From: an uncultured Chloroflexia bacterium
GTDB lineage: Bacteria; Chloroflexota; Anaerolineae; CG2-30-64-16
DNA length: 64,000 bases
NCBI GenBank assembly: GCA_963837925.1
Contig: CAWIPK010000005.1
Coordinates: forward strand, 79,376 to 143,375
Reading direction: 5' to 3'
Part shown: one piece after another, positions 1 through 42,300 of the stretch
Layout: each line of letters opens with the position of its first letter
Numbering within the stretch: the stretch's first letter is position 1
Position numbers and translations under genes: made by a program
The notes under the pieces: generated by a model
The model's input: only the letters and a program-made list of their open reading frames with translations
What the model was told of the DNA's origin: nothing
Databases searched by the model: none

Positions 1-2636
1 GATCGCCTGGCTGCGCAAAAACTGGCGGCTCATTCTCGCCACCGAAGCCCTGTTCCTGGCGGTGCTGGCTGCCTGGACGGTCTTTCGGGCCTACAGCGGT
101 GACATCGCCGGCACCGAGAAGCCGATGGAGTTCGCCTTCATCAACGGCATTCTCGATAGCCGTTTCTTCCCGCCGCAGGACCCCTGGCTGTCAGGCTATG
201 CGATCAGTTACTACTACTTCGGCTACGTGATGCTGGCGGCCCTCATCCGGCTGAGCGGCGTCTTGCCCGCCGTCGGTTTCAACGTCGGCGTTGCCATGTG
301 GTACGCACTCACCCTGACCGGCGCCTTTGGCGTGGTCTATGACCTCGTGCGGCTGGCCGGCCTGCGGCGGGCAGCCCCGGCCCCGCCGCCCGTGGGCCCG
401 GGCGCGGAAGAGGAGCCGGCCGGGCGCCCACCCCGGCCCGCCGCGGCGCCGCTCCGGCCCGGCAGCCCCGGCATCGCTCCGCAGGCGGCGCAGGCCTCGG
501 CGCTGCCCCCAGCCGCCTCGGCGTCGCGCGCGCAGCCGGCCCTGGCGGTCGGTCCCTCCACAGGGCAGCCGGTCAGGTTGGGCCAGGCGGCCCTGCCGGA
601 CGTCCGCGAGCGCGCGAGCCGGGCAGAGGCATCGGCGGTCGCCGATCAGGCTGGGGTCGCCAGGGCGATCCGGTTCGGCCTGGTAGGCGCCCTGCTGACG
701 GGCGTGATGGGCAACCTCGAAGGCCTGGTGGAGATGGCCTACAACCGCCGGCTCGTCCCGCTGGCCTGGATCCAGTGGCTTGACATAAAGGGACTGACGG
801 ACAGCGCGCCGAGCGGTGGTTGGGCGGGCGGCTTTTGGTGGTGGTGGCACGCCTCGCGCACGGTCCATGACCAACTGCTCGGCCGCACGCTCGAGGTCAT
901 CGACGAGTTCCCCTTCTTCAGTTTTCTCTTGGGCGACCTGCATCCGCACGTGCTGGCGCTGCCGTTCGTCTTGCTGGCGGTCGGCCTGGCGCTGAACCTG
1001 GTGCTGCAGGCCTCGGAGTTGGTGCTGGCCGCCGATGCTCCTCGGGTCCGCCCGGGGAGCGCCTCCTCGTCCGCACCGCTTGCACGGGGCGGCTCCCTGA
1101 TCGGCGAGTTGTCGAGCGGGTTGGCGCACTTCTGGGCCTTTCTCGGCCGGGTCACCGGCATGGGAGCGCCGGGGATCTTCCTTTACGCCCTGGCGCTGGG
1201 TGCGCTGGCGTTCCTCAACACCTGGGATTTCCCGATCTACCTTGCCTTGGCGGGCCTGGCCCTGGGGGCCGGCCTGGCGCTGCCGAACGGGCTTAACCGG
1301 CGGGTGCTCGGCAGGGTGCTTGGTGCGGGCTTGGTGCTGGGCGCGCTCGGGATCGCGCTCTATTTCCCATTCTACGTTGGCTTCCAATCGCAGGCCGGCG
1401 GGATCTTGCCCAACCTGTTCTTTCCCACGCGCTTCAGCCAGTTCTTCCTGATGTTCGGCCCCTTCCTGGTGGTGACCGTCTTTTTCCTGCTGCTGTTGAG
1501 CGGCGGCTTGCCGCGGCGCACGTTGTTCGGGCACTTATGGCGACTGTGGCTGTGGCTCGTCTTGCTGCCCCTGGCCTTCCTGGGCCTGATCCTCGGCGGG
1601 GCGTTGCTGTTGCCGCAGGGGCGTGCCGTGGCCGATGCCCTCCTGAGCAACGGCGACGTGCGCGCCGCTCTGGGTGGGCGGGACGTCTCGCAGGTCGCTG
1701 CCCTGGTGGTCCAGTTGCGGGCTGCCACTCCCTGGACCTTTCTGGTGCTGGCGATCCTGATCGCCTGGGCGGGAGGGTTGTTGTGGACCTGGCTGGCCGG
1801 GCGCGGGGCTGACCGGCGCGGACGGGCTCGACGCCGCCGGCCCGGTGCGCCGCGCTTGCCCGCCGACCGACTTGTTCGTGACGGTCATGATCGCCCTGGC
1901 GCTGCTGCTTACCCTCAGCGTGGAATTTGTCTACCTGAAGGACTATTTCTCGTCGCGCATGAACACGGTCTTCAAGTTCTATTACCAGGCCTGGATACTA
2001 CTGGCCCTGGCCTCGGCCTACGGGCTGAGCCGCCTGGCTGAGGCCAGGACGCGGCCCGCCCTGGCCCTTCCGGGCCTCGGCCTGGCCGGCCTGTTGATCT
2101 TCGGCGGGCTCTATTACCCGTTGCTTGCCACGCCGAGCAAGGCCAACGACTTCCAGGCTCAGTCGACCGCCCAGGCAGGCGCCTGCCCGGCCGTCCCGAC
2201 GCTCGACGGGCTGAGCTTTCTCTGCCAGAGCGATCGCGCCGACTATCAGGCCATCACCTGGATCCGGGCCAACCTGCCGCCGACCGCCACCGTCCTCGAG
2301 TACGCGGGCGGCTCGTACAGCGCCGAGGGCGCCGAGCGTATCTCCATGTCGACCGGCAATCCGACCCTGCTCGGCTGGGATTTTCACGAGCGGCAATGGC
2401 GCGGCGGCGCCTTCGATGCGCTGGCAGGGGCCCGCCCCGATGCCATCCAGGCCATCTATCGCACGGCCGCTCCGGACGAGCTGCGCGGCCTGCTCGAGCG
2501 CTGGCACGTCGATTACGTGTATGTGGGGGCCCTGGAGCGGAGCAAGTATGGCATTACCGACCCGGTCATGGCGCGTTTTGACCGCGTTCTGCGCAAGGTG
2601 TACGACGAGGATGGCGTGAGGATCTACGCGCGTTGA
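1..2636 (+). CDS. DUF2298 / Chlor_Arch_YYY-type polytopic membrane protein. The N-terminus lies a few codons upstream of the window. The reading frame breaks near 1800-1845, shifting from the frame of ORF 62..2041 to the frame of ORF 1845..2636.
   Basis: Translation from nt 2 reads IAWLRKNWRLILATEALFLAVLAAW, continuing into ORF 62..2041 with the hallmark motif ...GYAISYYYFGYVMLAA. ORF 1845..2636 (...TVMIALALLLTLSVEFVYLKDYF...NTVFKFYYQAWIL...) is the C-terminal part of the same family, in another frame. The frame switch coincides with a G-run (cgcgggg, ~1803-1808). Confidence 0.7.
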
Positions 2637-2659
2637 AGAGTTTTCAAGAGTGGTGACCT

Positions 2660-4603
2660 ATGACCCAAGCTGAACTTACTGCCCGAACGACCGGCGCCGG
2701 CCTCGGCCTGTCCGCCTGGCTGACGACTGAGCGTGTGGCCTATGCCGGGGCCGCCGGCCTGGCACTGTTCCTGCGCCTGCTCGGGCTCGGCCTTCGGCCG
2801 CTGGGTCCGGCGGAAGCTGCCCAGGCCCTGCCGGCCTGGCAGGCCGGGCAAGCCCAGCCGTTTCAGCTATCGGGCCTCAGCCCTTTGCTCTTCGGGCTGC
2901 AGCGTTGGTTGTTCACGCCTCTGGCCGGCAGCGACGGCCTGGCGCGTTGGTGGCCCGCCCTGGCCGGCGGCCTGGCGACGCTGCTGTTCTACGCCTTGCG
3001 CGCTCGCCTGGGGCGCGCTGGGGCCCTGGTCGCCGCGCTGCTCTGGGCCGGCTCACCGCTGGCGGTGTTCATCAGCCGGCAGGCGACCGGTTATGGCCTG
3101 GTGCCGCCGCTGGCGCTGGCCCTGCTCGCCGGCCTTAGCCTGGCGCTGCGGGCGCGGGAAGGACTTGCCCCCTCGCCCACGGCAGAACCGCCGATCGCGA
3201 CCGACAGGCGGGCCGGGGTAGCTGGCGGACGGCCGGCCTCGGGGGAGGGCCGCACGGCCCTCGTCTGGGCGGCCATCGCGCTGGGCGCCCTTCTGGCCGC
3301 GGGTTCCGGTGCCTATACCGTGCTGCTGATCGGACTGGCTGCCGCCCTGCTCTGGCCGGGCACGACCGTTCGCCTCGCCAGCGCCATGCGCGGGCACGCT
3401 CGCCCGGTCTTGCTGGCCGGGGTGCTGTCTTTCGTGCTCTCGTCGACAGCCCTCTTCTCCACCCCTGCCGGTCTCGCCGCAGCCGCTGACCTGCTCGGGG
3501 CCTGGTTGCGGGGCCTCATGCCCGGCCTGACCGGCTACAGCCCGGCCGAGCTGCTGCTGCGGCTGCTGTTGAGCGAGCCGCTCCTGTTAGGATTCGGCAT
3601 CGCCGGGCTGGTGTGGGCCATCCGCCGCAGGGACGGCTTTGGCCTCTTCGCCGGCCTGGCCGCCGGCCTGGCCCTGCTGGTCCCGCTGCTCGGCGGCGGG
3701 CGCCAGGTGGACGACCTGGGTCTCGTGGTGATCCCGTTGCTCCTGCTCGCCGGCCCTGCCATCGCCTGGACGCTGGCGGCCCTCTGGTCCTGGCGCAGGG
3801 AGGTCGACCCCTGGCTCTTGGTGGCGCTCAGCCTGACGCTGCTGGCCGCCGCGGCCATCAGCCTGCCGAGTTTCTATGCCGCCACGGATGCCGGCCACCG
3901 GGTCCTCTACCTCGGCGTGACAGCGGTCACTCTGCTGCTCCTTGCGGGTTTGTGGCTGGTCTACGGCGCGTGGGGGAGCTGGCACACAGTGCGGCGGGCG
4001 CTGCCGGCGGTGGCGCTGCTGGTAGGCGTGGTCTGGGCCTTGAGCCAACTTAACAGCCTGAATTATGACACCAACCCGCTGCAGCGCCCGGGGGTCTTGC
4101 TACGCACGCCGGGTCCGGACTGGGCGGACTTGCGGGCCGAGCTGCGCGACCTTTCGGCGCTCAACTCCGGCGGTGCGCGGGAGGCGCCCATCGACCTCGT
4201 CGTGCCGCTGGACCCGGCTGACCCGTTGACTCCCATGTTGCTCTGGGAGCTGCGTGACCACAGCGCGCTCCGGGTCGGGACCGGCCTGCCGTCGAACCCC
4301 GCCCCGCTCGTGATCACGCCGGCTGACGTTCAGCCGGCCATCGGCGATCGCTCGATCGGAGACCGCTACAGCGGTGCCAGCTTTGATCTGCTCGAGCAGT
4401 GGAGACCCGAAAGCCTGACCGGGCCAGACCCGGCCCAGCAGTGGCTGCGCTGGATCATCTACCGGCAGGCGCCCACGGCGCCCGAGACGACCTGGAAGGC
4501 TGTGCTCTGGGCAGACCGCTTGCCGGCCGGGCAGGGATTTTCGCAAAACAGCCTGAACAATCAGGTGTCACCCGTCGCCTTGCCAGCTGGCAAGGCGCAG
4601 TAA
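2660..4603 (+). CDS. Polytopic membrane protein resembling PMT/ArnT-like GT-C-fold glycosyltransferases, the family typically encoded next to DUF2298/YYY proteins. It has no NHL domain.
   Basis: 647-aa ORF with many predicted TM helices. N-terminal region (LALFLRLLGLGLRPLGPAEAAQALPAWQ ... RWWPALAGGLATLLFYAL ... AGSPLAVFISRQATGYGL) has the same architecture as the N-terminal halves of the next two genes. It lies in the same operon, 23 nt after the DUF2298 gene. Confidence 0.55.
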   Translation: MTQAELTARTTGAGLGLSAWLTTERVAYAGAAGLALFLRLLGLGLRPLGPAEAAQALPAWQAGQAQPFQLSGLSPLLFGLQRWLFTPLAGSDGLARWWPALAGGLATLLFYALRARLGRAGALVAALLWAGSPLAVFISRQATGYGLVPPLALALLAGLSLALRAREGLAPSPTAEPPIATDRRAGVAGGRPASGEGRTALVWAAIALGALLAAGSGAYTVLLIGLAAALLWPGTTVRLASAMRGHARPVLLAGVLSFVLSSTALFSTPAGLAAAADLLGAWLRGLMPGLTGYSPAELLLRLLLSEPLLLGFGIAGLVWAIRRRDGFGLFAGLAAGLALLVPLLGGGRQVDDLGLVVIPLLLLAGPAIAWTLAALWSWRREVDPWLLVALSLTLLAAAAISLPSFYAATDAGHRVLYLGVTAVTLLLLAGLWLVYGAWGSWHTVRRALPAVALLVGVVWALSQLNSLNYDTNPLQRPGVLLRTPGPDWADLRAELRDLSALNSGGAREAPIDLVVPLDPADPLTPMLLWELRDHSALRVGTGLPSNPAPLVITPADVQPAIGDRSIGDRYSGASFDLLEQWRPESLTGPDPAQQWLRWIIYRQAPTAPETTWKAVLWADRLPAGQGFSQNSLNNQVSPVALPAGKAQ

Positions 4604-4620
4604 CTTGAATAACAGGTTCC

Positions 4621-7600
4621 ATGTCTGACTACGACTTCACGCCCGATGCTGGCGCTCCGATCGCCTTGCCCGGCCCCGCCGGAGCGGCCGTCGTCGGCGC
4701 GCCTGCGCGCCCGGCGGCGCCTGGGGCCGCGCCCGCGGCCGGCGCTCCGTCCATGCCGGTGGAGAGCCTGCTGGATCGCCCCTTCCTGCAAGTCGTGCGT
4801 TGGGATGGCGAGAAACTGGCCTGGCTGCTGCTGTTGGCCGCCGCCCTGGCCAGCCGGCTGATCGGCCTCGGCGACCGAGCGATCAGCCACGACGAGAGCC
4901 TGCACGCCCTCTATTCCTGGCACCTGTTCGACGGCCAGGGGTATCAGCACGAAGCCATGATGCACGGGCCGCTCAAGTTCGCCGGCAACGCCTTCATGTA
5001 CTTCATTTTCGGGGTCAACGACTGGAGCGCGCGCATCCAGGTGGCCCTGTTCGGCGTGCTGATGGTGGGGTTGGTGTGGTTGCTGCGGCCGTGGCTGGGG
5101 CGGGTGGGGGCCTTTCTGGCGGCCCTGATGTTCACGATCTCGCCGGCGCTGCTGTTCCACAGCCGCTACATCCGGGATGAGGTGATCCTGTGTGCGCTGC
5201 TGGTGCTGCTGGTGGTGGCGATGTTCCGCTACCTGGCGACACGGCAGACGAAGTGGCTGATCTGGACTGCGGTGGCGTTGGGACTGGCCCTGACGACCAT
5301 GGAGGCCTCGTTCATCTTCGGCGGCATCTTCGGCATCTTCCTGCTCCTGGCCCTCGCCGTGCGCCTCTGGACCTGTCCCTGGCCCTCCGCGGCGGCCACC
5401 GCCCCTTCCGGCGGGGACGGCTACCCTCCCGACGCGGCCGCGCGCGCGCCGGCGCCGGCGGACCGCAGGAAGCTCTATCGCTACCTGGTGGGCGCGGCCG
5501 TGCCGGGGTTGGCCGCCGACACGGCCCTCCTGATCTTCAGGCAATCCCTGCCCGGCCTGGCTCTGGCCGGCCTGGGTGCCCTCTTGGCGCTCGGCGCGGC
5601 CTTCATAGTGGCACTCGCCTGGCGCTCACGCCTGCGCCTTTTCGTCGAGCTGGACCTGCTGGTCCTGCTGTTCACGCTGGTGCTGCCGTTCCTGACGGTT
5701 TTCCCGATGCGGCTGCTGGGCTGGTCTGTGGACCCATTCAAGAAAGCGGACGGCGCCTTCACCCTTGCCACCACCTGGCAGGGTTTTCTCGTCATGGGCA
5801 TCCTGGCCCTGATCAGCCTCGGCATCGGCTGGTACTGGTTGCGCGGGCGCTGGCTCGCGGCGGCCGGCATCTTCTGGGCCATCGAGCTGGTGCTCTTCAC
5901 CTCGTTCCTGACCAACGGCATGGGCGTGGGCACGGGCATCATCGGCTCCCTGGGCTACTGGATCGACCAGCAGGAGGTCATGCGCGGCGGGCAGCCCTGG
6001 TACTACTTCCTGCTGATGGTGCCGCTCTACGAGTTCCTGCCGCTGCTGCTCGCCGCCGGGGGGGCGCTCGCGATCCTCACGCACGGCACCGGCCGGCCTT
6101 TCGCGTCCTCGCTGCCGTCGGGCGACGCGAGCCTGGGCTCCATCCGGCCGCCGGCCGCCGGGCCGCAAAGCTCCTACCAGGGGGAGTCCCGGCCGGAGCT
6201 ATTGCAGGCGCTCGACGTGCGAGCGCTGTTCCCACTCTTCCTGCTCTTCTGGGTCGCCGCCACCTGGGTTGTCTTCACCTACGTAGGTGAGAAGATGCCC
6301 TGGCATGTGGTGTATTTTGCCACGCCCATGGCCCTGCTCGGTGGCTGGTGGCTGGGCCGGGTGATCGAGGGCATTGACTGGGGCGTCGTGCGGGCGCGCG
6401 GGGGCTTCTGGCTTCTGGCCGCGCTGCCGGCATTTTTGCTCGCCCTCAAAGCGATCTTCCCGGTCTCCGCCAATCGGCCTTTCGTCGACATGAGCGTCAA
6501 CGGGCTGGGCACCACCGTCGGCTGGATCGCGGCGCTGCTCGTCGGGTTGGCAGTGCTCTGGCTGGCCTCGGGGCGCGTCGCCGCGCTCGGGCGCGCACAA
6601 AGCGTGCGCCTGCTGGCCGTGGGCCTGGCCGCCCTGCTGGGGATTTATACTGTCGGGGTCGCTTATCGCTTTGCCTACATCAACTACGACTATCCTACCG
6701 AGCCGCTGGTCTACGCTCACGGTACGCCGGACCTGAAGTTGGCGATGAGCCAGGTCGAGGAGATCTCGCGCAAGACCGTGGGCGGCCACAACTTGAAGAT
6801 TGCCTACGATAGCGACGCCCTGTGGCCACTGGAGTGGTACTTGCGGGATTACGGCAACCGGGTCTACTACGGGGAAACCCCCTCGCGCGCCGCCCTGGAC
6901 GCGCCGGTGGTCATCGTGGGCGACGGTGGGCTGGACAAGGCCAAGCCTTACCTGGGCGACCGCTACTACGACTTCACCTACCGCCTCATCTGGTGGCCCC
7001 GCCAGACGTACTGGGACCTGACCTGGCAGCGCATCTGGGATGGGATCCGAGACCCGAAACAGCGCGGCCAGTTCTGGGACGTCGTGCTCAACCGGCGTTA
7101 CACCACGCCGACGGCGGCCTGGGAGCCACCGTACGTGCGCTTCTTCCACTTGTTTGTGCGCAAGGACGTGGCGGCGCAGGTCTGGGACTGGGGGGTGCCG
7201 TCGGCCGCGGCGGCCGCGGCGGCAGTGGATCCGTATGCGGCGGGGCAGAAGGATGTGACGGCGCTGGCGCAGATAGGGACGGCGGGGGTGAGCGGGGCCG
7301 GGGCGGGGCAGTTGGCGACGCCGCGGGCGCTGGCGGTGGCGGGGGACGGGACGGTGTACGTGGCGGACACGGGGAACAATCGGGTGGAGGTGTTTGGGGC
7401 GGACGGGCAGTACCTGCGGGAGTGGGGCGGGACGTGCAAGCTGATCGAGAACAACCAGGGCTGCGTGGGGGACGGGCGGGGGCAGTTCAACGAGCCGTGG
7501 GGGATTGCGGTGGGGAGTGACGGGAGCGTGTACGTGTCGGACACCTGGAACTCGCGGGTGCAGAAGTTTGACCGGGAGGGGAAGTTCGAGGCGATGTGGG

Positions 7601-8172
7601 GGGTGTTCCAGAGCACGAACGGGGAGTTGACGGAGCCTGGGGCGCTGTACGGGCCGCGGGCGATCGCGGTGGGGCAGGACGGGTTGGTGTATGTGATGGA
7701 CACGGGGAACAAGCGGGTGCAGTCGTTCAAGCCGGACGGGACGTTTGTCGGGCAGTACGGTGGGGGAGGGGTGGTGGACGGGAAGTTTGACGAGCCGGTG
7801 GGGCTGGCGCAGGATGCGAGCGGGGACTGGTACGTGACGGACACGTGGAACCACCGGGTGGAGAAGTTTGATGCGAGTTGGAAGTATGTGGGGCAGTGGG
7901 CGGTGAACGGCTGGGGGAGCGAGAGCGTGGTGAACAAGCCGTACGTGGCGGTGGACGGGCAGCGCGGGTTGGTGTACCTGACGGACCCGGAGGGGTACCG
8001 GGTGTTGGTGTTCGGGACGGACGGGAGCTTCAAGGGGATGTGGGGTGGATTTGGGCAGGAAGCGGACACGTTCACGCTGCCGACGGGGATTGCGGTGGGG
8101 GCGGACGGCAAGGTTTACGTGGCCGATGGCGGCGCCAACCGCATCATGATCTTCCCAGCCTTCGGGAGTTAG
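4621..8172 (+). CDS. Fusion protein: N-terminal PMT/ArnT-like GT-C membrane domain (~830 aa, many TM helices, DE-containing first loop ISHDESLH) plus C-terminal NHL-repeat six-bladed beta-propeller (~340 aa).
   Basis: 1183-aa intact ORF. N-terminal LIGLGDRAISHDESLHALYSWHLFDGQG...GPLKF...FYFIFGVNDWSARIQ resembles PMT_2/ArnT-type GT-C enzymes. The C-terminus has repeated NHL blades (LATPRALAVAGDGTVYVADTGNNRVEVF; PWGIAVGSDGSVYVSDTWNSRVQKF; PRAIAVGQDGLVYVMDTGNKRVQSF; PVGLAQDASGDWYVTDTWNHRVEKF; PTGIAVGADGKVYVADGGANRIMIF). An Ala-run linker (PSAAAAAAAVDPY) joins the two domains. Confidence 0.8.
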   Translation: MSDYDFTPDAGAPIALPGPAGAAVVGAPARPAAPGAAPAAGAPSMPVESLLDRPFLQVVRWDGEKLAWLLLLAAALASRLIGLGDRAISHDESLHALYSWHLFDGQGYQHEAMMHGPLKFAGNAFMYFIFGVNDWSARIQVALFGVLMVGLVWLLRPWLGRVGAFLAALMFTISPALLFHSRYIRDEVILCALLVLLVVAMFRYLATRQTKWLIWTAVALGLALTTMEASFIFGGIFGIFLLLALAVRLWTCPWPSAAATAPSGGDGYPPDAAARAPAPADRRKLYRYLVGAAVPGLAADTALLIFRQSLPGLALAGLGALLALGAAFIVALAWRSRLRLFVELDLLVLLFTLVLPFLTVFPMRLLGWSVDPFKKADGAFTLATTWQGFLVMGILALISLGIGWYWLRGRWLAAAGIFWAIELVLFTSFLTNGMGVGTGIIGSLGYWIDQQEVMRGGQPWYYFLLMVPLYEFLPLLLAAGGALAILTHGTGRPFASSLPSGDASLGSIRPPAAGPQSSYQGESRPELLQALDVRALFPLFLLFWVAATWVVFTYVGEKMPWHVVYFATPMALLGGWWLGRVIEGIDWGVVRARGGFWLLAALPAFLLALKAIFPVSANRPFVDMSVNGLGTTVGWIAALLVGLAVLWLASGRVAALGRAQSVRLLAVGLAALLGIYTVGVAYRFAYINYDYPTEPLVYAHGTPDLKLAMSQVEEISRKTVGGHNLKIAYDSDALWPLEWYLRDYGNRVYYGETPSRAALDAPVVIVGDGGLDKAKPYLGDRYYDFTYRLIWWPRQTYWDLTWQRIWDGIRDPKQRGQFWDVVLNRRYTTPTAAWEPPYVRFFHLFVRKDVAAQVWDWGVPSAAAAAAAVDPYAAGQKDVTALAQIGTAGVSGAGAGQLATPRALAVAGDGTVYVADTGNNRVEVFGADGQYLREWGGTCKLIENNQGCVGDGRGQFNEPWGIAVGSDGSVYVSDTWNSRVQKFDREGKFEAMWGVFQSTNGELTEPGALYGPRAIAVGQDGLVYVMDTGNKRVQSFKPDGTFVGQYGGGGVVDGKFDEPVGLAQDASGDWYVTDTWNHRVEKFDASWKYVGQWAVNGWGSESVVNKPYVAVDGQRGLVYLTDPEGYRVLVFGTDGSFKGMWGGFGQEADTFTLPTGIAVGADGKVYVADGGANRIMIFPAFGS
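7149..8160 (+). repeat. 1012-bp segment identical to 10623-11634 (offset 3474 bp). It encodes the linker plus NHL propeller of both paralogs.
   Basis: Direct comparison of the two stretches: every spot-checked line is identical (e.g. 7261-7320 vs 10735-10794, and 7861-7920 vs 11335-11394). The encoded protein sequences are identical from LFVRKDVAAQ to RIMIFPA. Confidence 0.85.
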
Positions 8173-8175
8173 AGA

Positions 8176-11100
8176 ATGCAGGATTCACAAACGACGGTTA
8201 CTCCGCGGCGCGAGGCCCCGGTCGGCCAGGCTCTGCTTGACCGGGCTTTCGTGGCGCTGGTGCATTGGGATGTAGAGAAGCTGGCCTGGGCGGCCCTGCT
8301 GGTCGTCGCCTTGCTCAGTCGCACGATCGGCCTGGGCGACCGCGCGATGAGCCACGACGAGAGCCTGCATTCTTATTACTCATGGAAGCTGTTCGACGGC
8401 CAGGGCTTTCAGCACCAGCCGCTGATGCATGGGCCGCTCAAGTTCATCGTCAACGCCTTCATGTACTTCATTTTCGGGGTCAACGACTGGAGCGCGCGCA
8501 TCCAGGTGGCCCTGTTCGGCGTGCTGATGGTGGGGTTGGTGTGGTTGCTGCGGCCGTGGCTGGGGCGGGTGGGGGCTTTCCTGGCGGCCTTGATGTTCAC
8601 GATCTCGCCGGCGCTGCTGTTCCACAGCCGCTACATCCGGGATGAGGTGATCCTGTGTGCGCTGCTGGTGCTGCTGGTGGTGGCGATGTTCCGCTACCTG
8701 GCGACACGGCAGACGAAGTGGCTGATCTGGACGGCGGTGGCATTGGGACTGGCCCTGACGACCATGGAGGCCTCCTTCATCTTCGGCGGCATCTTCGGCA
8801 TCTTCCTGCTCCTGGCCCTCGCCGTCCAGTGGTGGCAGCTCGACTGGCCGGATGGCCCCGGTCCCCGCGAGAACTTCCGCCGCGCGCTCGTCGTGGGGCT
8901 GCCGGCCCTGGTCGCCGGCCTGATCTTCCTCGTGTTCAAGGAAAAGCTGGCCGGCTTTGTTCTGCTGGGCGCCGGCGGCCTGGCGCTCGCCGCTGCGGTG
9001 CTCCTGGTGGCCACGAGCTGGCGGCTGCGGCTGCGCGCTTTCGCCGAGCTCGACCTGGTCGTCCTGCTGCTGACGCTCGTCCTGCCGTTCCTGTCCGCCG
9101 TCGTCCTCAAGCTGCTGGGCTGGCAGATCAGCCAGTTCACGAGCCCGGGCTCGGTCACTTTGGCCAACGTCTGGCAGGGCGGCATCGTCCTCGTCGTCAT
9201 GTTCATCCTCAGCGTCTCCGTCGGCGCCTACTGGTTGGGCGGGCGCTGGTTCGCGGCCGCGGGCCTCTTCTGGGCGATCGAGGTGCTGCTCTTCACGACT
9301 TTGCTGACCAACGGGCAGGGCATTGCCACCGGCCTGATCGGTTCCCTGGGTTACTGGATCGATCAACAGGAGGTCATGCGTGGCGGCCAACCCTGGTACT
9401 ATTTCTTCCTCTTGGTCCCGCTCTACGAGTTCCTGCCGCTGCTGCTGGCCGCCGGGGGGGCAGTTGCCTGGTTCCTGGGCCTCGGTGCCGGCGGCCAGGC
9501 GACGCGCCTGGCGGCCGAACGGCAGAACGGCAACGCTGGGGCCGACGGGGGCGGCACCGTACTGCCGGTCATGGGCGCAGCCCTGGCCGCAGAATATCCC
9601 GGGCCGAGCAACGTCGTCGAGCTGCGCGGCGCGCCTCCGGCCGTCGGGCCGGTTGAGAGCGTGCTCCACACGACGCCCTCCCAGGCGGGCTCTTCGCCGG
9701 CGAGCCTTTTCGTAGCCTTCCTGGTCTTCTGGGTGTTCGCGGTCTGGGTCGTCTTCACCTACGTAGGTGAGAAGATGCCCTGGCACGTGGTGTATTTCGC
9801 CACGCCCATGGCCCTGCTCGGTGGCTGGTGGTTGGGCCGGGTGATCGAGGGCATTGACTGGGGCGTCGTGCGGGCGCGCGGGGGCTTCTGGCTGCTGGGC
9901 GGCGTCCCGGTGTTCCTCTTCGTGCTCAAAGCCATCTTTCCCGTCCCGGAGCGCCGTCCCTTTGTCGGCGTTAGCACCACCGCGCTCAGCAACACCGTCC
10001 AATGGCTGCTCGCGCTGATCGTCGGCGTCGCGCTCGTCTGGCTGGCCTACCCGCGGATCACAAGCCTCGGTTGGCGCCTCAGCCGGCGACTGATCGTGGT
10101 CGCGCTCGCTGTCGTGCTGGCCGTCTTTACGGTCAACGTGGCATTCCGTTTCGCCTTCGTCGACTACGACTATGCCACCGAGCCGATGGTTTACGCGCAC
10201 GCGACCCCGGATATCAAGCTGGCTATGGGCCAGATCGACGAGATCTCGCGCAAGATCGCCGGCGATCACAGCCTGAAGGTGGCCTACGACGACGATTCGA
10301 GCTGGCCGCTGGTCTGGTATCTGAGGGACTACAAGAATCAGGTCTTCTATGGCGCGAATCCGACCAAGGAGAGCCTGGATGCGCCGGTGGTCATCGCCGG
10401 CGATAAGAACATCGACAAAGTGCGGCCCTATCTCGGCGATCGCTACTACGAGTTCAGCTATCGGCTGATCTGGTGGCCGTCCCAGACCTACTTCGGGCTG
10501 ACCTGGCAGCGCATCTGGGACGGGATCCGAGACCCGAAACAGCGCGGCCAGTTCTGGGACGTCGTGCTCAACCGGCGTTACACCACGCCGACCACCCAGT
10601 GGTCGTTGGTACACCGTTTCAGCTTGTTTGTGCGCAAGGACGTGGCGGCGCAGGTCTGGGACTGGGGGGTGCCGTCGGCCGCGGCGGCCGCGGCGGCAGT
10701 GGATCCGTATGCGGCGGGGCAGAAGGATGTGACGGCGCTGGCGCAGATAGGGACGGCGGGGGTGAGCGGGGCCGGGGCGGGGCAGTTGGCGACGCCGCGG
10801 GCGCTGGCGGTGGCGGGGGACGGGACGGTGTACGTGGCGGACACGGGGAACAATCGGGTGGAGGTGTTTGGGGCGGACGGGCAGTACCTGCGGGAGTGGG
10901 GCGGGACGTGCAAGCTGATCGAGAACAACCAGGGCTGCGTGGGGGACGGGCGGGGGCAGTTCAACGAGCCGTGGGGGATTGCGGTGGGGAGTGACGGGAG
11001 CGTGTACGTGTCGGACACCTGGAACTCGCGGGTGCAGAAGTTTGACCGGGAGGGGAAGTTCGAGGCGATGTGGGGGGTGTTCCAGAGCACGAACGGGGAG

Positions 11101-11643
11101 TTGACGGAGCCTGGGGCGCTGTACGGGCCGCGGGCGATCGCGGTGGGGCAGGACGGGTTGGTGTATGTGATGGACACGGGGAACAAGCGGGTGCAGTCGT
11201 TCAAGCCGGACGGGACGTTTGTCGGGCAGTACGGTGGGGGAGGGGTGGTGGACGGGAAGTTTGACGAGCCGGTGGGGCTGGCGCAGGATGCGAGCGGGGA
11301 CTGGTACGTGACGGACACGTGGAACCACCGGGTGGAGAAGTTTGATGCGAGTTGGAAGTATGTGGGGCAGTGGGCGGTGAACGGCTGGGGGAGCGAGAGC
11401 GTGGTGAACAAGCCGTACGTGGCGGTGGACGGGCAGCGCGGGTTGGTGTACCTGACGGACCCGGAGGGGTACCGGGTGTTGGTGTTCGGGACGGACGGGA
11501 GCTTCAAGGGGATGTGGGGTGGATTTGGGCAGGAAGCGGACACGTTCACGCTGCCGACGGGGATTGCGGTGGGGGCGGACGGCAAGGTTTACGTGGCCGA
11601 TGGCGGCGCCAACCGCATCATGATCTTCCCAGCCTGGCAGTAA
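8176..11643 (+). CDS. Tandem paralog of the previous gene: GT-C-like membrane domain fused to an identical C-terminal NHL beta-propeller.
   Basis: 1155-aa intact ORF that starts 3 nt after the previous stop. It shares near-identical blocks with the previous gene (8431-8825 vs 4966-5360; 9750-9899 vs 6270-6419; 10501-10596 vs 7021-7116) and the perfectly identical 3' block. Other segments are strongly diverged. Confidence 0.8.
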   Translation: MQDSQTTVTPRREAPVGQALLDRAFVALVHWDVEKLAWAALLVVALLSRTIGLGDRAMSHDESLHSYYSWKLFDGQGFQHQPLMHGPLKFIVNAFMYFIFGVNDWSARIQVALFGVLMVGLVWLLRPWLGRVGAFLAALMFTISPALLFHSRYIRDEVILCALLVLLVVAMFRYLATRQTKWLIWTAVALGLALTTMEASFIFGGIFGIFLLLALAVQWWQLDWPDGPGPRENFRRALVVGLPALVAGLIFLVFKEKLAGFVLLGAGGLALAAAVLLVATSWRLRLRAFAELDLVVLLLTLVLPFLSAVVLKLLGWQISQFTSPGSVTLANVWQGGIVLVVMFILSVSVGAYWLGGRWFAAAGLFWAIEVLLFTTLLTNGQGIATGLIGSLGYWIDQQEVMRGGQPWYYFFLLVPLYEFLPLLLAAGGAVAWFLGLGAGGQATRLAAERQNGNAGADGGGTVLPVMGAALAAEYPGPSNVVELRGAPPAVGPVESVLHTTPSQAGSSPASLFVAFLVFWVFAVWVVFTYVGEKMPWHVVYFATPMALLGGWWLGRVIEGIDWGVVRARGGFWLLGGVPVFLFVLKAIFPVPERRPFVGVSTTALSNTVQWLLALIVGVALVWLAYPRITSLGWRLSRRLIVVALAVVLAVFTVNVAFRFAFVDYDYATEPMVYAHATPDIKLAMGQIDEISRKIAGDHSLKVAYDDDSSWPLVWYLRDYKNQVFYGANPTKESLDAPVVIAGDKNIDKVRPYLGDRYYEFSYRLIWWPSQTYFGLTWQRIWDGIRDPKQRGQFWDVVLNRRYTTPTTQWSLVHRFSLFVRKDVAAQVWDWGVPSAAAAAAAVDPYAAGQKDVTALAQIGTAGVSGAGAGQLATPRALAVAGDGTVYVADTGNNRVEVFGADGQYLREWGGTCKLIENNQGCVGDGRGQFNEPWGIAVGSDGSVYVSDTWNSRVQKFDREGKFEAMWGVFQSTNGELTEPGALYGPRAIAVGQDGLVYVMDTGNKRVQSFKPDGTFVGQYGGGGVVDGKFDEPVGLAQDASGDWYVTDTWNHRVEKFDASWKYVGQWAVNGWGSESVVNKPYVAVDGQRGLVYLTDPEGYRVLVFGTDGSFKGMWGGFGQEADTFTLPTGIAVGADGKVYVADGGANRIMIFPAWQ
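10623..11634 (+). repeat. Second copy of the 1012-bp identical block (see 7149-8160).
   Basis: As for 7149-8160. Confidence 0.85.
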
Positions 11644-11686
11644 GTCCAGCGCGGGTAGCTCGCTGACTGATCGCCTTGTCCGGGGA

Positions 11687-11695
11687 TGATATAAT
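11687..11695 (+). promoter_or_regulatory. Extended -10 element (TGaTATAAT) upstream of sucC. No good -35 is present.
   Basis: Sequence gaTGaTATAATgcg sits ~80 nt upstream of the sucC start. Confidence 0.35.
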
Positions 11696-11774
11696 GCGCG
11701 TGTGTCACGGGTGATACGAAGACGTGTCACCCTTTCGTCGTCAGTGACGGGGTTTCTGGTAAGGAGGCATAGCC

Positions 11775-18175: not shown

Positions 18176-19215
18176 ATGCGCGCACTGGTTCTCGACGACG
18201 GCAATCACGTCCTCTATGACCCGGCTTACCCTGACCCGCTCCCGCCGCCCGGTGAGGCGCTGATAAAGGTACGTCTGGCCGGTATCTGCAACACCGACCT
18301 CGAGCTGGTGGCCGGCTATATGGATTTCGCCGGTGTGTTGGGACACGAGTTTGTGGGTGAAGTTCTGAGCTCGCCGGACCCGACCTGGCTCGGTCGGCGG
18401 GTGGTGGGCGACATCAATGCCGCCTGCTACCGCTGCTCAACCTGCCGCGCCGGACGGCACACGCACTGTCCGCAGCGCACGACCCTGGGCATCTCTGGCC
18501 GCGACGGCGCTTTTGCCGACCGGCTGCTTCTGCCCCAGGCCAATCTCTACGCCGTTCCGGACTCCGTTCCGGATGAGGCGGCGGTTTTCGTCGAGCCGTT
18601 GGCCGCCGCTTGCGAGATCCTGAACCAGGTGAGGCTTCGCCCGGCTGATCGGGTCGTGGTGCTCGGCGATGGCAAGCTGGGGCTCCTGGCGGCAGCCGTC
18701 CTTCGGCTGCAGGGCGTCGACCTGACCCTCGTCGGCCGGCATGCCCACAAGCTGGCCCTGGCGGCCGCCTGGGGCGTGCGCGTCTGCCTGCACTCGAGAG
18801 GCAGGGCCGGGGAAGGCCCCCTCGGCCAGCCCTGCCGGGGCGGACGAGGCTGCTGCCGGGCACGCCGCACACCCTGCCCGACGGCTGCGCCGACATAGTG
18901 GTCGAGTGTACCGGCAAGGCAGAAGGCTTCGCCGAGGCCCGCCGGTTGCTGCGGCCGCAGGGCACTCTGGTCTTGAAGAGCACCTACCACGGCCGCCTGA
19001 CCCTGGATATGAGCGCCCTGGTCGTCGACGAGATTACGATCGTCGGCTCACGCTGCGGGCCGTTTGCCCCGGCTTTGCGCCTGCTCCAGTCTGGACTGAT
19101 TGATCCGCGCCCTTTGATCAGCGCGATCTACCCCCTTGCGTTGGGCGAGGCAGCTCTTGCCCATGCCGTTCAGCCCGGAGTGCTCAAGGTGCTGCTCGAT
19201 CCACGAGCTGTGTGA
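18176..19215 (+). CDS. Zn-dependent alcohol dehydrogenase (MDR superfamily). Reading frame is broken between ~18785 and ~18890.
   Basis: ORF 18176..18898 gives the GroES-like and Rossmann parts (GEALIKVRLAGICNTDLELVAGY...GHEFVGEV ... [16 protein letters not shown]). ORF 18898..19215, in another frame, gives the C-terminus. The upstream in-frame extension of that second frame reads ...HTLPDGCADIVVECTGK. The middle runs through GC homopolymer tracts (ggccggggaaggccccctcgg). Confidence 0.7.
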
Positions 19216-29952: not shown

Positions 29953-31370
29953 ATGTCTGACGGTAGTGCTGTGGTGATGGTTACGGCCATCGCGGGCGGC
30001 GTGCTGGCCCTGATGCTGTTCTTGATCGTGCTCGGGCTGCTGCGCTCCCTGGTGCGCGTCTGCCCATCCAATCAGGTCCTGGTCGTCACCGGTGGCACGG
30101 AGACCGTGGTCGACGGCCGTAAGTACGGTTTCCGCATCCAGAAGGGCGGCTGGACGTTGGTCATTCCATTCATCCAGACCGCGCAGGCGATCGACCTCAC
30201 CATTCTACCCATCAACGTGCGGGTCGAAGGGGTGAATTCGGCCAACGGCATTGCCGTGGGCGCGGATGCAACGGCTTGCGTTTGTATCAACGATATGAAC
30301 GACACTTTGCTCTACAGCGCCGTGCAGCAGTTGTTGGGCAAGTCCCGGACCCAGATCAAAGACCAGATCCAGCAGACGATGGTGGGCAACTTCCGGGCGG
30401 CGCTCAACAAGACGACCCCGCTGCAGGCGATCGGCATGGTCGAGAGCGCCGAAGGCGTGAACGACGTCGAGCTGGCCGATACCGCCGGTGGGCGCGCTGC
30501 CGGTTCAGTAGCGGAATCGGACTCGGCGAACGCGCCATTTTTCGGCGCTTCCTGCTCGAGGACTGCCGCCAGGACTTGAGCGCCTTCGGCATGGAAGTTG
30601 TCTCTGTCTCCTTGCAGCGCATCTGGGATGACTCGAACTACATTGCTAACCTGGCCAACAAGACGCTTTCCCGCAAACGGCAGGAAGTTGAGATCGAGGA
30701 GGCCCGCCTGCGGGCACGCGCCGAACAGGCCGAGTCTGACGCCGGCCGGCGGATGCTGGTGGCCGAGAACGCGGCCAACGAGCGCATCCTGGCCAAGCAG
30801 CAGGAGGTGGAGCTCTACCGGCGGCAGTGTGAGGCCGAGGTGCGGCGCGCCAAGCTGGAGGCCGACAGTGGTATCGCTCAGGCCGCCAACGGGGGCCAGC
30901 GGCTTGTCCAGGAGGTGCGCGGTGACCTGCAGGTGCTCAAGAACCGCTCCGAGGTGACGCTGGCCGCGGAAGCGCAGCGCCGCTGTGCCGAGGTGCTGGC
31001 CGGTGGCCAGTCCCAGGCCGTGGAGATCGTCCAGCGTGCGCGCAACGCGCTGTTGCAGCAGAAGGTCGATCTGCTGCAGCGGACCGGTGACAAAGGCAAG
31101 ATCGCGCTTTTCATCACGCAATTGCCCTCGTTGTTCCAGGCTTACCAGTCGCACGCTCAGAAGCTGTCCGTGGACGAGTACCTGGTGCTGAGCGAGGATG
31201 ACGGCTTCAACAACGCCGTCAATCGCGGCCCGGCTGCCATGGTCGACTTTATGCAGCGTCTGGAAGAGGGGTTCGGCATCAGCGTCAAGCAACTCCTGTC
31301 CACTTCCGCTTCACCTGCGCCGGCCACATCATCGGCCGAGCCGGGGCCTGCCGCTGCGAAGGAGGCTTGA
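29953..31370 (+). CDS. Flotillin-like SPFH/band-7 protein (FloT-like). Its reading frame is interrupted by a 92-nt insertion at 30436-30527.
   Basis: ORF 29953..30579 covers the TM and SPFH N-terminal part (colinear with FloT up to GNFRAALNKTTPLQAIG). ORF 30276..31370, in another frame, continues exactly where FloT continues (ERAIFRRFLLEDCRQDLSAFGMEVVSVSLQRIWDD..., coiled-coil, C-terminal region). Removing 30436-30527 restores ...LQAIGERAIF... in one frame. Confidence 0.7.
30436..30527 (+). other. 92-nt insertion flanked by the 5-bp direct repeat TCGGC (30431-30435 and 30523-30527). It disrupts the first flotillin gene.
   Basis: The 92-nt length is not a multiple of 3, which accounts for the frame change. 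It has no counterpart in FloT or in the second flotillin paralog in this window. No terminal inverted repeats are evident. Confidence 0.55.
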
Positions 31371-39362: not shown

Positions 39363-42300
39363 TCAGGCGTCGAAGGTCTTGAACTCTTTGCCGGCCGCCG
39401 CCATATCGTCCAGTATTTGCTTTGTTTCTGCGAACGAGGCGCCGCCTATGCGTTCCACTTTGCAGCCTGCCGCCCGCAGGTCTTGCTCGACCTGGTCGGG
39501 AATCCCTAGCGGCCCGCCCACGATGGTCACGTACCGGGCGCTACGGGCGTCTTCGGCCGAGAAGCCGGCCGTCGGCTGGAAGCGGGCGATGTAGTTGATG
39601 GCCCCGTTCCAGTCATCCCTGGCCCAATCGGTCGCACTTCGCCAGAAAAGCAGATAGTGGTTGACGCTCGCGCAGCCTGCTGCCGCCGCCTGGACTGCCC
39701 GCACCCGCGTCTGCAGCAGGTCACGCCACTTCTGGCCAGACTGCCATTGATTGCCAGGGCACTCTGTTGCGCTCTCCGGATACTCCCTGTGGCCCAGCAC
39801 CCGCTCGATGGGGATGCCTAGTTCCTGCATCAGCCAGGCCACCAGGTCCCCCAGCCGCTCGATCTGCAGTGGGGTGGGGATCACGTCGTTGAAGTTACCG
39901 GCCGTACAAATGCCCACCAGGCAACTGTTGTTATTGTACACGTTGTAGGCGATTGTCTCCAAGCGGTTGACCTGATAGATCGTCCCGTCCGCTTCGACCA
40001 GGAAATGGTAGCCGATCCCCGGCCAACCCTGGCTCACGTGGTAGGCGGCGATCGATGAGGGCGCCACATTCGCTGGCGCCGCGCTGTGATGGATGGCCAG
40101 GTGCGTGATGCTGCCCTGCGCCCGCGTGTCGTAGCGCAAATTTGGGTGCTTGGGTAACTGGTCGGTGATGTCTTTGATCGCGGGACGTGCCGCCCGCGCC
40201 GGTGCCGCGGGTTGTGCCGGGCCGGCCTGCAGAGACTGGATGCATGCCTGCAAATCGCTGATCTGCTGCTGCATCGCAGCCAGTTGCGCCGCCAACTGCT
40301 CGTTGTCGCCGGTGAGGGCTTGGATCCGCTGCGCCAGCTCGCTCTGATCGACCGTCAGCGCCTGCACCTGTCCCAGCAGCTTCGCCTTGTCATCTGCCAG
40401 CGCGCCGGTCTCGGCCTGTAGTTCATCGCGTTCGCGGGTCAATGCGGCCAGGCTGTTTTGAGCCGCCAATAGGCTGGCCTGGAGGCCGGCCAGGTCGTCT
40501 GCGGCGGGCGCAGGCGCCGGGCTGCCTTGCAGGCGGGTGATGGCGTCGAGGAGCAGGTTTTTCCAGGCCTTGCCCTGCGACCACTGTAGCCCCGGGGATT
40601 GCGTGGCGATGAAGTCGCTGGCGCCCTTGACGCGCTCCGCCGGGATCTGGTACTCCTGCATCAGCCACGCGCTTAGCCGGGCGGCCGAGTCCATTTGAGC
40701 TTGCGCCGGCACGTCTTCGTTGAAGTTGCCGGCCAGCCCGATATTGATCCCCTGCGCGATCCAGGTCTGCGATAGATCCACTGCCGCCTCGATCGGTTCG
40801 GTCTGCAGGATCGAGCCGTCGGGTCCGATGAAAAACTGGTACAGGATCGCTCCCCAGCGCTTCTGATGGGCGGCGGCCACGCGTTCGACGCCGACCGTGG
40901 CGTCGACTGCCGTGTGGTTGAAGACCAGAAAGCGAATCTGGTCGGCCGGCCGGCTCTTGAGCGCGCCATCGTTGTGGGGTAAGCGCGCGCTGATATCGGT
41001 CAGGGGTGGGGCGCTGAGCAGTTGTTCCGCGGCCCGTGAAGGTGGCCGGTTGGTTTCTCGACCCAGCTCTGGCGTCGCGCCGTCCTCGAGGCTGACGATC
41101 TCGACGCCGGGCAGGATCAAGCGGCGCTCGCTCTCGGCGGCCTGCGCGGCCGGGCTCACGGCATCATCCCCGGCGTCTGATCGTGCTTGTGGCGCCGGTG
41201 CCTGCGGCTGATCGCCCAGCGCACGTTGTCCGGCGTGCTCGGCCTGCCCCGTCTGCAGTTGCTCGCTGCGGGTTTGTGTGCCCAGAATGGCCCGGACTTG
41301 CTGCAGCAGCATATCCTTCCAACGCCAGCCGCTCATCCACTGTATCCCGGGCGATTGGGTGGCAACAAACTCGCTGGCGCCGCGCAAGGCGCTTTCGTCC
41401 AGGCCGTATTTTGCCAGCAACCAGGCCACCAACTGGGACAGAGCGCTCAGTTGCGCGGGAGACGGCACTGTCTCGTTGAAGTTGCCCGCCACATAGATGT
41501 TGATGCCATTATAGAACCAGGCCAAATCTGGGGTGACGGCTTCGTCCAGCGGTTCCGTCTGCTGGATCTGTCCGTCACCGCAAACGTAATACTGGCTGAC
41601 AATCCCAGGCCAACGCGCCCGTTGTGCGCGCGCCACGGCCGCCGCGCCGACCTCGGGTCGCACGGCCGTATGATTGACGACGACGTACTTGACGTCTCCG
41701 GCAGAACGTTTTGCGAAACCGGCCGGGTCACGCGGCAATTGGAGCGTAATGTCCGTGACCGGTGGCATGGGCAGCTGCCCGCCGCCCTCCTTCGCCAGTT
41801 GAGCGGCGATCTCTGCCTGCAACTGGACGATCAGCCCCTGCAGCTGGCTAACCTGGCTCTGCAGCGAGCCGTTCTGCTTCTGGAGCACACTGTTCTGCGC
41901 CTGCAACTCGGCCACCTGGGCCCTGAGCTGAGCGATTTGCTGGCTAACGTCCACTTGTTGCACCTTTACCTCCACCGAAACCGGCTTGCTGGCTTTCATT
42001 GCGGCAAACCAGCCGTCGCTATCTTCTACCAGGTCCCACTGTAGCCGGTAGGCGCCGGCATCACCCGGTGCCGCCACGCGGGCCTGAATCGACACAGTCT
42101 CATCTGGTTGCACCGTTCGTGCGAGTGGCGTGCGCAGCGCGGGCTGAGGGGCCGCGGCCACGGGCTCCCCGCGGCTGTTCAGCCACTGATAGCCCAGCCG
42201 GACCCGCTCGCAGTCCCACGGTTTGCACCCCGAATTGCGCAGTACGAGCGCCACCTCCACCGTCTGCCCGGCGTCCATCTGCGATGGCGTGTTCTGGCTG

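Follow-up and report, generated by a model that had tools for sequence, protein, structure and literature searches.

A conserved DUF2298–Agl23 gene cluster of Anaerolineae as a candidate surface glycosylation machinery

We analysed a 64,000-nt stretch of contig CAWIPK010000005.1 (the window) from an uncultured Chloroflexia bacterium, in which four consecutive large open reading frames (ORFs) on the + strand occupy nt 1–11643. They encode a DUF2298 protein (gene 1), a propeller-less paralogue of the Agl23 family (gene 2) and two Agl23-type proteins that end in an NHL propeller (genes 3 and 4). We consider it fairly probable that the cluster is a co-transcribed set of GT-C (glycosyltransferase C-fold) proteins that acts on the external side of the cytoplasmic membrane with polyprenyl-phosphate-linked sugars, and it probably decorates the cell surface. 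Its fixed three-gene core, consisting of DUF2298, a paralogue without the DE motif and Agl23-NHL, is here delimited as a testable unit. In sludge, sediments and soils Anaerolineae are plentiful, yet next to nothing is known of their envelope chemistry. The cluster comprises the following parts:

1–1807 (+): gene 1, 5′ part, frame 2; PF10060 275.8 bits, TIGR03662 222.7 bits
1806–2636 (+): gene 1, 3′ part, frame 3; last transmembrane (TM) helices and C-terminal globular domain
2660–4603 (+): gene 2, 647 aa; propeller-less Agl23-family paralogue, aligned by hhalign to the Agl23-type TM domain
4621–8172 (+): gene 3, 1183 aa; GT-C membrane domain, alpha/beta domain and NHL propeller (~7270–8157); TIGR03663 219.6 bits
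8176–11643 (+): gene 4, 1155 aa; canonical Agl23-NHL gene of the cluster; TIGR03663 240.2 bits

Gene order and conservation of the core

A sequence-only reading of the window had reported this gene order on one strand with gaps of 23, 17 and 3 nt, and re-measurement of the stop/start junctions (2636/2660, 4603/4621 and 8172/8176) gave the same values. Gene 1 is not a single ORF here: its 5′ end falls outside the window, and the remainder is divided between two frames. The tight spacing had been taken as consistent with a single operon. Two further features agree with this: (i) a Shine-Dalgarno-like GGGAG precedes the ATG of gene 4 at a distance of 7 nt, and (ii) a 131-nt spacer (11644–11774) follows gene 4, in which a TATAAT-like box, GATGATATAATG, and then a strong AAGGAGG stand ahead of the TTG start codon of sucC. 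Judged from these signals, the cluster fits one transcription unit. Because of the box and the AAGGAGG in the spacer, sucCD probably has its own promoter, and the cluster is thereby set apart from the downstream housekeeping genes, namely sucCD, a poly(A) polymerase-family protein (PolyA_pol and HD domains), secDF, an alcohol dehydrogenase (ADH) and a D-Ala-D-Ala carboxypeptidase. Consensus scans within the cluster returned no sigma-70-like site, and the terminator-like matches fall in coding sequence. The G+C content of the window is 62–72%, and database proteins identical to window proteins are P0198, P0121 and P0002. The genes 5′ of nt 1 are known from relatives only.

We scanned species-representative genomes with an alignment of gene 2 and, together with two look-ups, found a gene 2 homologue at 26 loci. 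These come without exception from metagenome-assembled genomes (MAGs) assigned to Anaerolineae, Anaerolineales or Chloroflexota, and all were scored with home-made hidden Markov models (HMMs). In every locus with an upstream flank (25/25), the gene directly 5′ of the gene 2 homologue is a DUF2298 gene (~850–1000 aa), and in every locus with a downstream flank (25/25) the next gene 3′ is of the Agl23 type. The downstream gene bears an NHL propeller wherever the contig allows, and all genes share one strand. This order is fixed although the gene 2 proteins of the relatives are only 40–53% identical to that of the window, and the co-conservation in Chloroflexota that had been proposed is thus borne out. 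A second Agl23-NHL gene occurs in none of the other loci examined and is confined to this lineage. The previously described expansion to three GT-C paralogues therefore amounts to the usual two, gene 2 and Agl23-NHL, plus one duplicate.

Further upstream, an additional DUF2298 gene (~900 aa) is usual in the relatives, as is a gene for a protein ~1550–1760 aa long. The GT-C genes upstream of the triad occupy the following intervals:

2–7233 of locus L020
1–3967 of locus L001
1–3751 of locus L003

The large upstream protein of L020 (1557 aa) is a fusion of PMT_2 and DUF2298, and a 1257-aa upstream protein of L003 matches both families as well. Such fusions independently support a joint role of the two module types. 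They also bear on the possibility that the four genes are separate GT-C enzymes of different pathways that are simply packed together. For this view it can be said that no common substrate or regulator was identified and that GT-C genes are numerous in these genomes, with another GT-C-like one at 55609–60075 of the window. Order and strand are nevertheless invariant in every informative locus, the gaps measure 3–23 nt and the fusions exist, so that mere neighbourhood is already disfavoured and, in our estimate, highly improbable. In L001 (4340–5460) and L003 (3948–5389), the upstream DUF2298 genes are separated from the triad by an ECF-type (extracytoplasmic function) sigma-70 gene and a small unannotated gene. 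This pair is ECF sigma/anti-sigma-like, is found in some lineages only, and hints at envelope-stress regulation.

The sequence-only reading had further presented the cluster as a candidate novel system, which is overstated. Loci of this type are widespread in Anaerolineae MAGs, and Chloroflexota metagenomes are rich in the Agl23-NHL architecture (720 matches, many full-length). With hundreds of full-length Agl23-NHL homologues, the system is not peculiar to this window.

The Agl23-type genes and their propellers

Proteins of TIGR03663 are characterised by an N-terminal DE dipeptide, an HGP tripeptide and conserved arginines. Both gene 3 (219.6 bits) and gene 4 (240.2 bits) score above the curated NCBIfam cut-off of 126.25 bits for this family, which confirms the proposed assignment for these two genes. 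PMT_2 matches gene 3 (47.5 bits) and gene 4, and PF02366 matches gene 4 at 39 bits. The two propellers that had been noticed by eye are equally real: NHL repeats score 141 bits in each protein, with five repeats matched in a propeller that is six-bladed. The relevant elements are located as follows:

4882–4905 (+): ISHDESLH, DE motif of gene 3, at the place where a DE-type motif had been proposed; MHGPLKF follows at 4960–4980
8347–8370 (+): MSHDESLH, DE motif of gene 4; MHGPLKF follows at 8425–8445
Residues 33–662, 670–830 and 856–1151 of gene 4 (+): TM domain, alpha/beta domain and NHL propeller (nt 10741–11628)

Both proteins retain an intact H-D-E ... H-G-P and four-Arg loop directly after TM1. 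In an alignment of 68 sequences, R56, H60, D61, H65, H85-G86-P87, R108, R126, R152 and R155 are invariant and E62 is conserved to at least 90%. Among 60 Agl23-NHL homologues, all of E34, R56, H60, D61, E62, H65, H80, H85, G86, P87, R108, R126, R152 and R155 are invariant. An AlphaFold2 model of gene 4 built from the 68-sequence alignment (mean predicted local distance difference test score, pLDDT, 86.4) places TM1 at residues 33–50 and the H-D-E helix from residue 60 within a helical membrane domain, followed by a disordered loop (452–502), the alpha/beta domain (~670–830) and the six-bladed propeller (856–1151). Genes 3 and 4, and by structure prediction also gene 1, have the GT-C fold of solved GT-C enzymes.

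Genes 3 and 4 thus share with Agl23 of Haloarcula hispanica the TIGR03663 match, the DE, HGP and Arg residues and a TIGR03662 neighbour. Unlike that protein they are bacterial; they are also roughly double the 435 positions of the model in length and possess two additional parts, an alpha/beta domain and, at the C-terminus, the NHL propeller. Compared with protein mannosyltransferases (PMT, GT39) and ArnT-type enzymes (PF02366/PF13231), to which sequence identity is only 10–16%, they lack the MIR domain and have the NHL propeller in the acceptor-side place. An NHL propeller of this type serves as an extracellular sensor in PknD of Mycobacterium tuberculosis; there it is joined to a kinase, here to a GT-C membrane domain.

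Gene 2 had been counted among the GT-C-like proteins. Membership in TIGR03663 fails for it: the model reaches 38 bits over its N-terminus, below the cut-off, which makes gene 2 a non-member by score; Pfam returns no match, and the protein is a sub-threshold, DE-less relative of Agl23. The kinship to genes 3 and 4 that had also been claimed is supported, and is visible by profile–profile comparison only. The gene 2 family and the Agl23-type proteins align with an hhalign probability of 98.2% (E 3.6e-14) over 559 columns, that is, over approximately the whole length of gene 2 and extending into the alpha/beta domain that follows the membrane part. The counterpart of the DE motif lies here:

2804–2830 (+): GPAEAAQAL, gene 2 loop with the Glu retained and the Asp changed to Ala

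Besides this exchange, the His and Gly residues of the loop are lost in gene 2 of the window. The same pattern is found in 182 gene 2-type proteins: E62 is retained in 182/182, and E34, P87, R108, R126 and R152 are retained as well, whereas the position of D61 is occupied by D in only 15/182 (mostly A, G or S) and all four His and R155 are lost. The family is large, with 379 representatives of 50%-identity clusters (E<=1e-10), and the ortholog in L020 lies narrowly above the PMT_2 threshold. The simplest reading of this residue pattern is a conserved, catalytically impaired paralogue; gene 2 is probably non-catalytic and could serve as a partner subunit or as a lipid-phosphate-binding module.

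Comparison of genes 3 and 4 with each other revealed a mosaic of diverged and nearly identical segments. DNA identity is 55–85% over most of the length and is interrupted by three tracts:

7149–8161 (+): gene-conversion tract, copy A; 1013-nt exact match to 10623–11635
10623–11635 (+): gene-conversion tract, copy B; 1013-nt exact match to 7149–8161
4981–5340 (+): older conversion tract over TM2–TM6, ~97% identical to 8446–8805
~6242–6421 (+): third conversion tract, matching 9722–9901

The 1013-nt tract, the longest exact match, covers nearly the entire propeller. Synonymous divergence (dS) between the two genes is 0.5–1.0 in the diverged segments and falls to 0.005 in the propeller tract, 0.07 at aa 121–247 and 0.16 at aa 546–600. 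In conserved unconverted segments, the ratio of nonsynonymous to synonymous divergence (dN/dS) is 0.25–0.48, and both genes are therefore under purifying selection. The protein of gene 3 is identical to database entry P0002. In the unconverted segments it groups with P0003, separate from all other homologues, and is 85% identical to it (87% in the propeller); gene 4 is 88% identical to P0001 (87% in the propeller). Within each genome the situation is reversed: gene 3 and gene 4 share 64% in unconverted segments and 100% in the propeller, and P0001 and P0003 share 62% and 100%. The DNA of locus L002, whose contig begins only ~150 nt ahead of the gene 3/gene 4 junction, follows the same identity pattern just before that junction.

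On these comparisons, gene 3 appears as an old tandem duplicate and lineage-specific extra paralogue. The same within-genome identity of propellers in a related genome points to concerted evolution, and the pattern has the signature of repeated gene conversion restricted to one domain. An assembly artefact is an unlikely source of the identical propellers, since P0001 and P0003 come from two other assemblies, behave alike and diverge from the window copies by 13%. Because conversion keeps the propellers identical, the acceptor is probably the same for genes 3 and 4, and the difference between them lies in the membrane domains. As a natural case of conversion limited to a single domain, the pair is a clean one.

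One further locus (L028, 603–4151, from the Joint Genome Institute (JGI) dataset 3300005947) encodes a membrane domain of the gene 3 type with a propeller and a stop of the gene 4 type (FPAWQ*). Here, sucC directly follows the fused gene and a separate gene 4 is absent. This arrangement is either a deletion variant produced by unequal crossover or a collapse of the assembly through the identical repeat.

The DUF2298 gene

Gene 1 matches both DUF2298 models, as the sequence-only reading had proposed, and DUF2298 is the only Pfam family that it matches. PF10060 scores 275.8 and 57.2 bits on the two halves (gathering score 27.8) and is present in intact orthologs. TIGR03662 scores 222.7 and 218.6 bits, each under the cut-off of 300.25 for the sole reason that the gene is split and truncated. 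The proposed AISYYYFGY motif is present, and the main landmarks are:

200–226 (+): YYY motif AISYYYFGY, in the putative first large external loop, 3′ of GTEKPMEFAF (110–139)
1805–1808 (+): GGGG run where frame 2 passes into frame 3; single-base indel, no residues lost
1956–1988 (+): RMNTVFKFYYQ, in the last TM helices
~2166–2633 (+): C-terminal globular domain, containing LLGWDFHERQW at 2367–2399

Among 82 homologues, E143, E147, D164 and the residues of SYY.FGY are invariant; of the tyrosines in the YYYxG motif, Y174 and Y175 are invariant and Y176 is conserved to at least 90%. In contrast to the norm of the TIGR03662/PF10060 family, gene 1 is frame-split, cut by the window and interrupted at ~330–700 (frame 2) by a Pro/Ala/Gly-rich low-complexity insert. 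The insert corresponds to residues 233–319 of the ortholog model, where it is disordered (pLDDT < 50). It is specific to the lineage: the closest relatives that carry it have ~980 aa, compared with 850–920 aa in most others.

The first 100 codons of gene 1 fall before nt 1 and are supplied by P0198 (779 aa, 100% identical). Using tblastn with the intact ortholog P0199 (982 aa, 77% identical), residues 105–707 map to frame 2 up to nt 1807 and residues 707–982 to frame 3 from nt 1806, which puts the junction at nt 1806/1807. Our DUF2298 HMM likewise matches with positions 104–632 in one frame and 637–887 in the other. Two kinds of observation make an assembly error very likely as the origin of the frameshift, rather than a pseudogene. 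First, the Zn-dependent ADH gene at 18176–19209 (+), 16 kb away, is split in the same way between two frames near 18784–18820, compared with an intact 341-aa ortholog in L002. Second, the long-read MAG loci of relatives (L013, L023, L026 and L027) are full of similar frame breaks. Programmed frameshifting is unlikely given that the unrelated ADH gene has the same defect.

If the frameshift were real, DUF2298 would be a pseudogene and the other genes would work alone or would also be decaying. The frame change at 1805–1808 does stand in the deposited sequence, and the source annotation calls only the 779-aa truncated product P0198. Set against this are the absence of any residue loss at the junction, the ~77–84% identity of both halves to the intact ortholog, the breaks in the ADH gene and in the long-read loci, and the purifying selection on genes 3 and 4; we regard decay of the cluster as quite improbable. 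Elsewhere in the window, a Band_7/SPFH ORF (208 aa) at 29953–31370 (+) matches only positions 3–113 of the 176-position profile and is overlapped in another frame by a 364-aa ORF without a Pfam match. This region may be a third frameshifted gene.

An AlphaFold2 model of P0199 based on 82 sequences (pLDDT 80.8, predicted template modelling score 0.87) had GT-C enzymes only as its top structural matches, with scores of 13.2 for Pmt4, 12.8 for Pmt2, 12.2 for STT3B, 10.8 for ALG12, 10.0 for AftA, 9.4 for AglB, 9.2 for PglB and 8.8 for ArnT. Foldseek returned DPY19, AglB (7e9s), AftA and 3vu0, all at a probability of 1.0. The C-terminal domain of the P0199 model was also matched by those of three oligosaccharyltransferases (OSTs), each represented by its isolated C-terminal globular domain. 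This domain contains the nearly invariant stretch NPTLLGWDFHERQWRG (window nt 2367–2399), whose GWDFHE may, as a lead, correspond to the WWDYG motif of OSTs.

The relationships to solved structures are visible at the fold level only. A profile of the 82 DUF2298 homologues returned no OST chain and no meaningful match from the PDB, and phmmer searches of the PDB with genes 1, 2 and 4 returned no meaningful match either. The hhalign probabilities of DUF2298 against the Agl23-type proteins (3%) and against the gene 2 family (0.5%) are not significant; we therefore do not claim DUF2298 as a sequence paralogue of the other three genes. Unlike STT3, AglB and PglB (GT66), gene 1 has no match to PF02516 (STT3 family) in the Pfam search, lacks WWDYG as such and has three extra N-terminal helices. 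Gene 1 was not classified as an OST, since neither sequence nor profile searches link it to OSTs. The models indicate that DUF2298 resembles a GT-C protein with an OST-like C-terminal domain, which would give this large family a concrete structural hypothesis.

Proposed function and further observations

The region forms the 3′ part of a 'GT-C island' conserved in Anaerolineae. This island probably works as one membrane machine, with glycosylation taking place on the external side of the cytoplasmic membrane from polyprenyl-phosphate-linked sugars. In this scheme, the four genes would be co-transcribed. Genes 3 and 4 would encode DE-loop transferases dependent on polyprenyl-phosphate hexose, with the NHL propeller holding the acceptor; gene 2 would provide a non-catalytic partner or a lipid-carrier-binding subunit, and DUF2298 would act as a second, OST-like transferase. 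The conserved acidic residues, D61 and E62 in genes 3 and 4 and E143, E147 and D164 in DUF2298, would face outward by homology.

Several points weigh against this assignment. Neither a GT2 polyprenyl-phosphate hexose synthase nor an obvious acceptor gene was found in the window and the examined 10-kb flanks, and gene 1 is broken as assembled. DUF2298 is without sequence or profile similarity to the Agl23-type proteins or to any solved structure. The outward position of the DE loop and the propeller is presumed by analogy with GT-C homologues, and no topology emerged from the noise of a plain hydropathy and positive-inside scan. Finally, the sole experimental data on the family cast Agl23 as a flippase and not as a transferase (PMC11182771).

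As the main alternative, genes 3 and 4, and perhaps gene 2, could be translocators that flip polyprenyl-phosphate-linked sugars or oligosaccharides to the outer leaflet, for use there by DUF2298 as the only true transferase. Genes 3 and 4 exceed the curated cut-off of a family whose current NCBIfam name is 'flippase activity-associated protein Agl23'. Agl23 of H. hispanica is a putative flippase for hexose-P-dolichol, suppresses the yeast rft1-delta mutation and, as purified protein, translocates M5GN2-PP-phytanol in liposomes (PMC11182771). The modelled OST-like C-terminal domain of DUF2298 would also suit a terminal transferase. We nevertheless judge translocation by genes 3 and 4 rather unlikely; their transferase-like structure and conserved catalytic-type loop bear on the question whether Agl23 proteins are flippases or enzymes.

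The pairing of the two families had been called functionally uncharacterised. With the Agl23 name and the translocation data, this no longer applies to the TIGR03663 half, and it still applies to the DUF2298 family, which is without a described function. A more far-reaching proposal, which we regard as speculative and unlikely, would make DUF2298 and Agl23 a protein-glycosylation pathway common to Archaea and Chloroflexota, in which DUF2298 is a hitherto unrecognised, highly diverged OST relative that joins a GT-C membrane domain to an AglB-like C-terminal domain with GWDFHE in place of WWDYG, the NHL propeller selects the target and gene 2 is an obligatory pseudo-enzyme partner.

A literature search on DUF2298, TIGR03662, TIGR03663, GT-C or oligosaccharyltransferase in Chloroflexi found essentially nothing relevant. 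The TIGR03662/TIGR03663 pairing and the name Agl23 are already in databases. The fixed triad with a DE-less paralogue, the modelled GT-C and OST-like fold of DUF2298 and the domain-restricted concerted evolution in this lineage appear undescribed. In kind, the cluster holds no surprise: surface glycosylation by GT-C proteins is well established, and the family definitions already contain the pairing of the two families.

Two other ORFs on the − strand of the window were noted. The 1488-aa ORF at 55609–60075 has an N-terminal YfhO-like (GT-C-type) region and a C-terminal Polysacc_synt/Wzx-type flippase domain; it looks like a GT-C module fused to a flippase of the MOP (multidrug/oligosaccharidyl-lipid/polysaccharide) type, and as such it bears on the flippase-versus-transferase question. 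The 1328-aa ORF at 39363–43349 contains three N-acetylmuramoyl-L-alanine amidase (Amidase_2) stretches together with coiled-coil-like regions.

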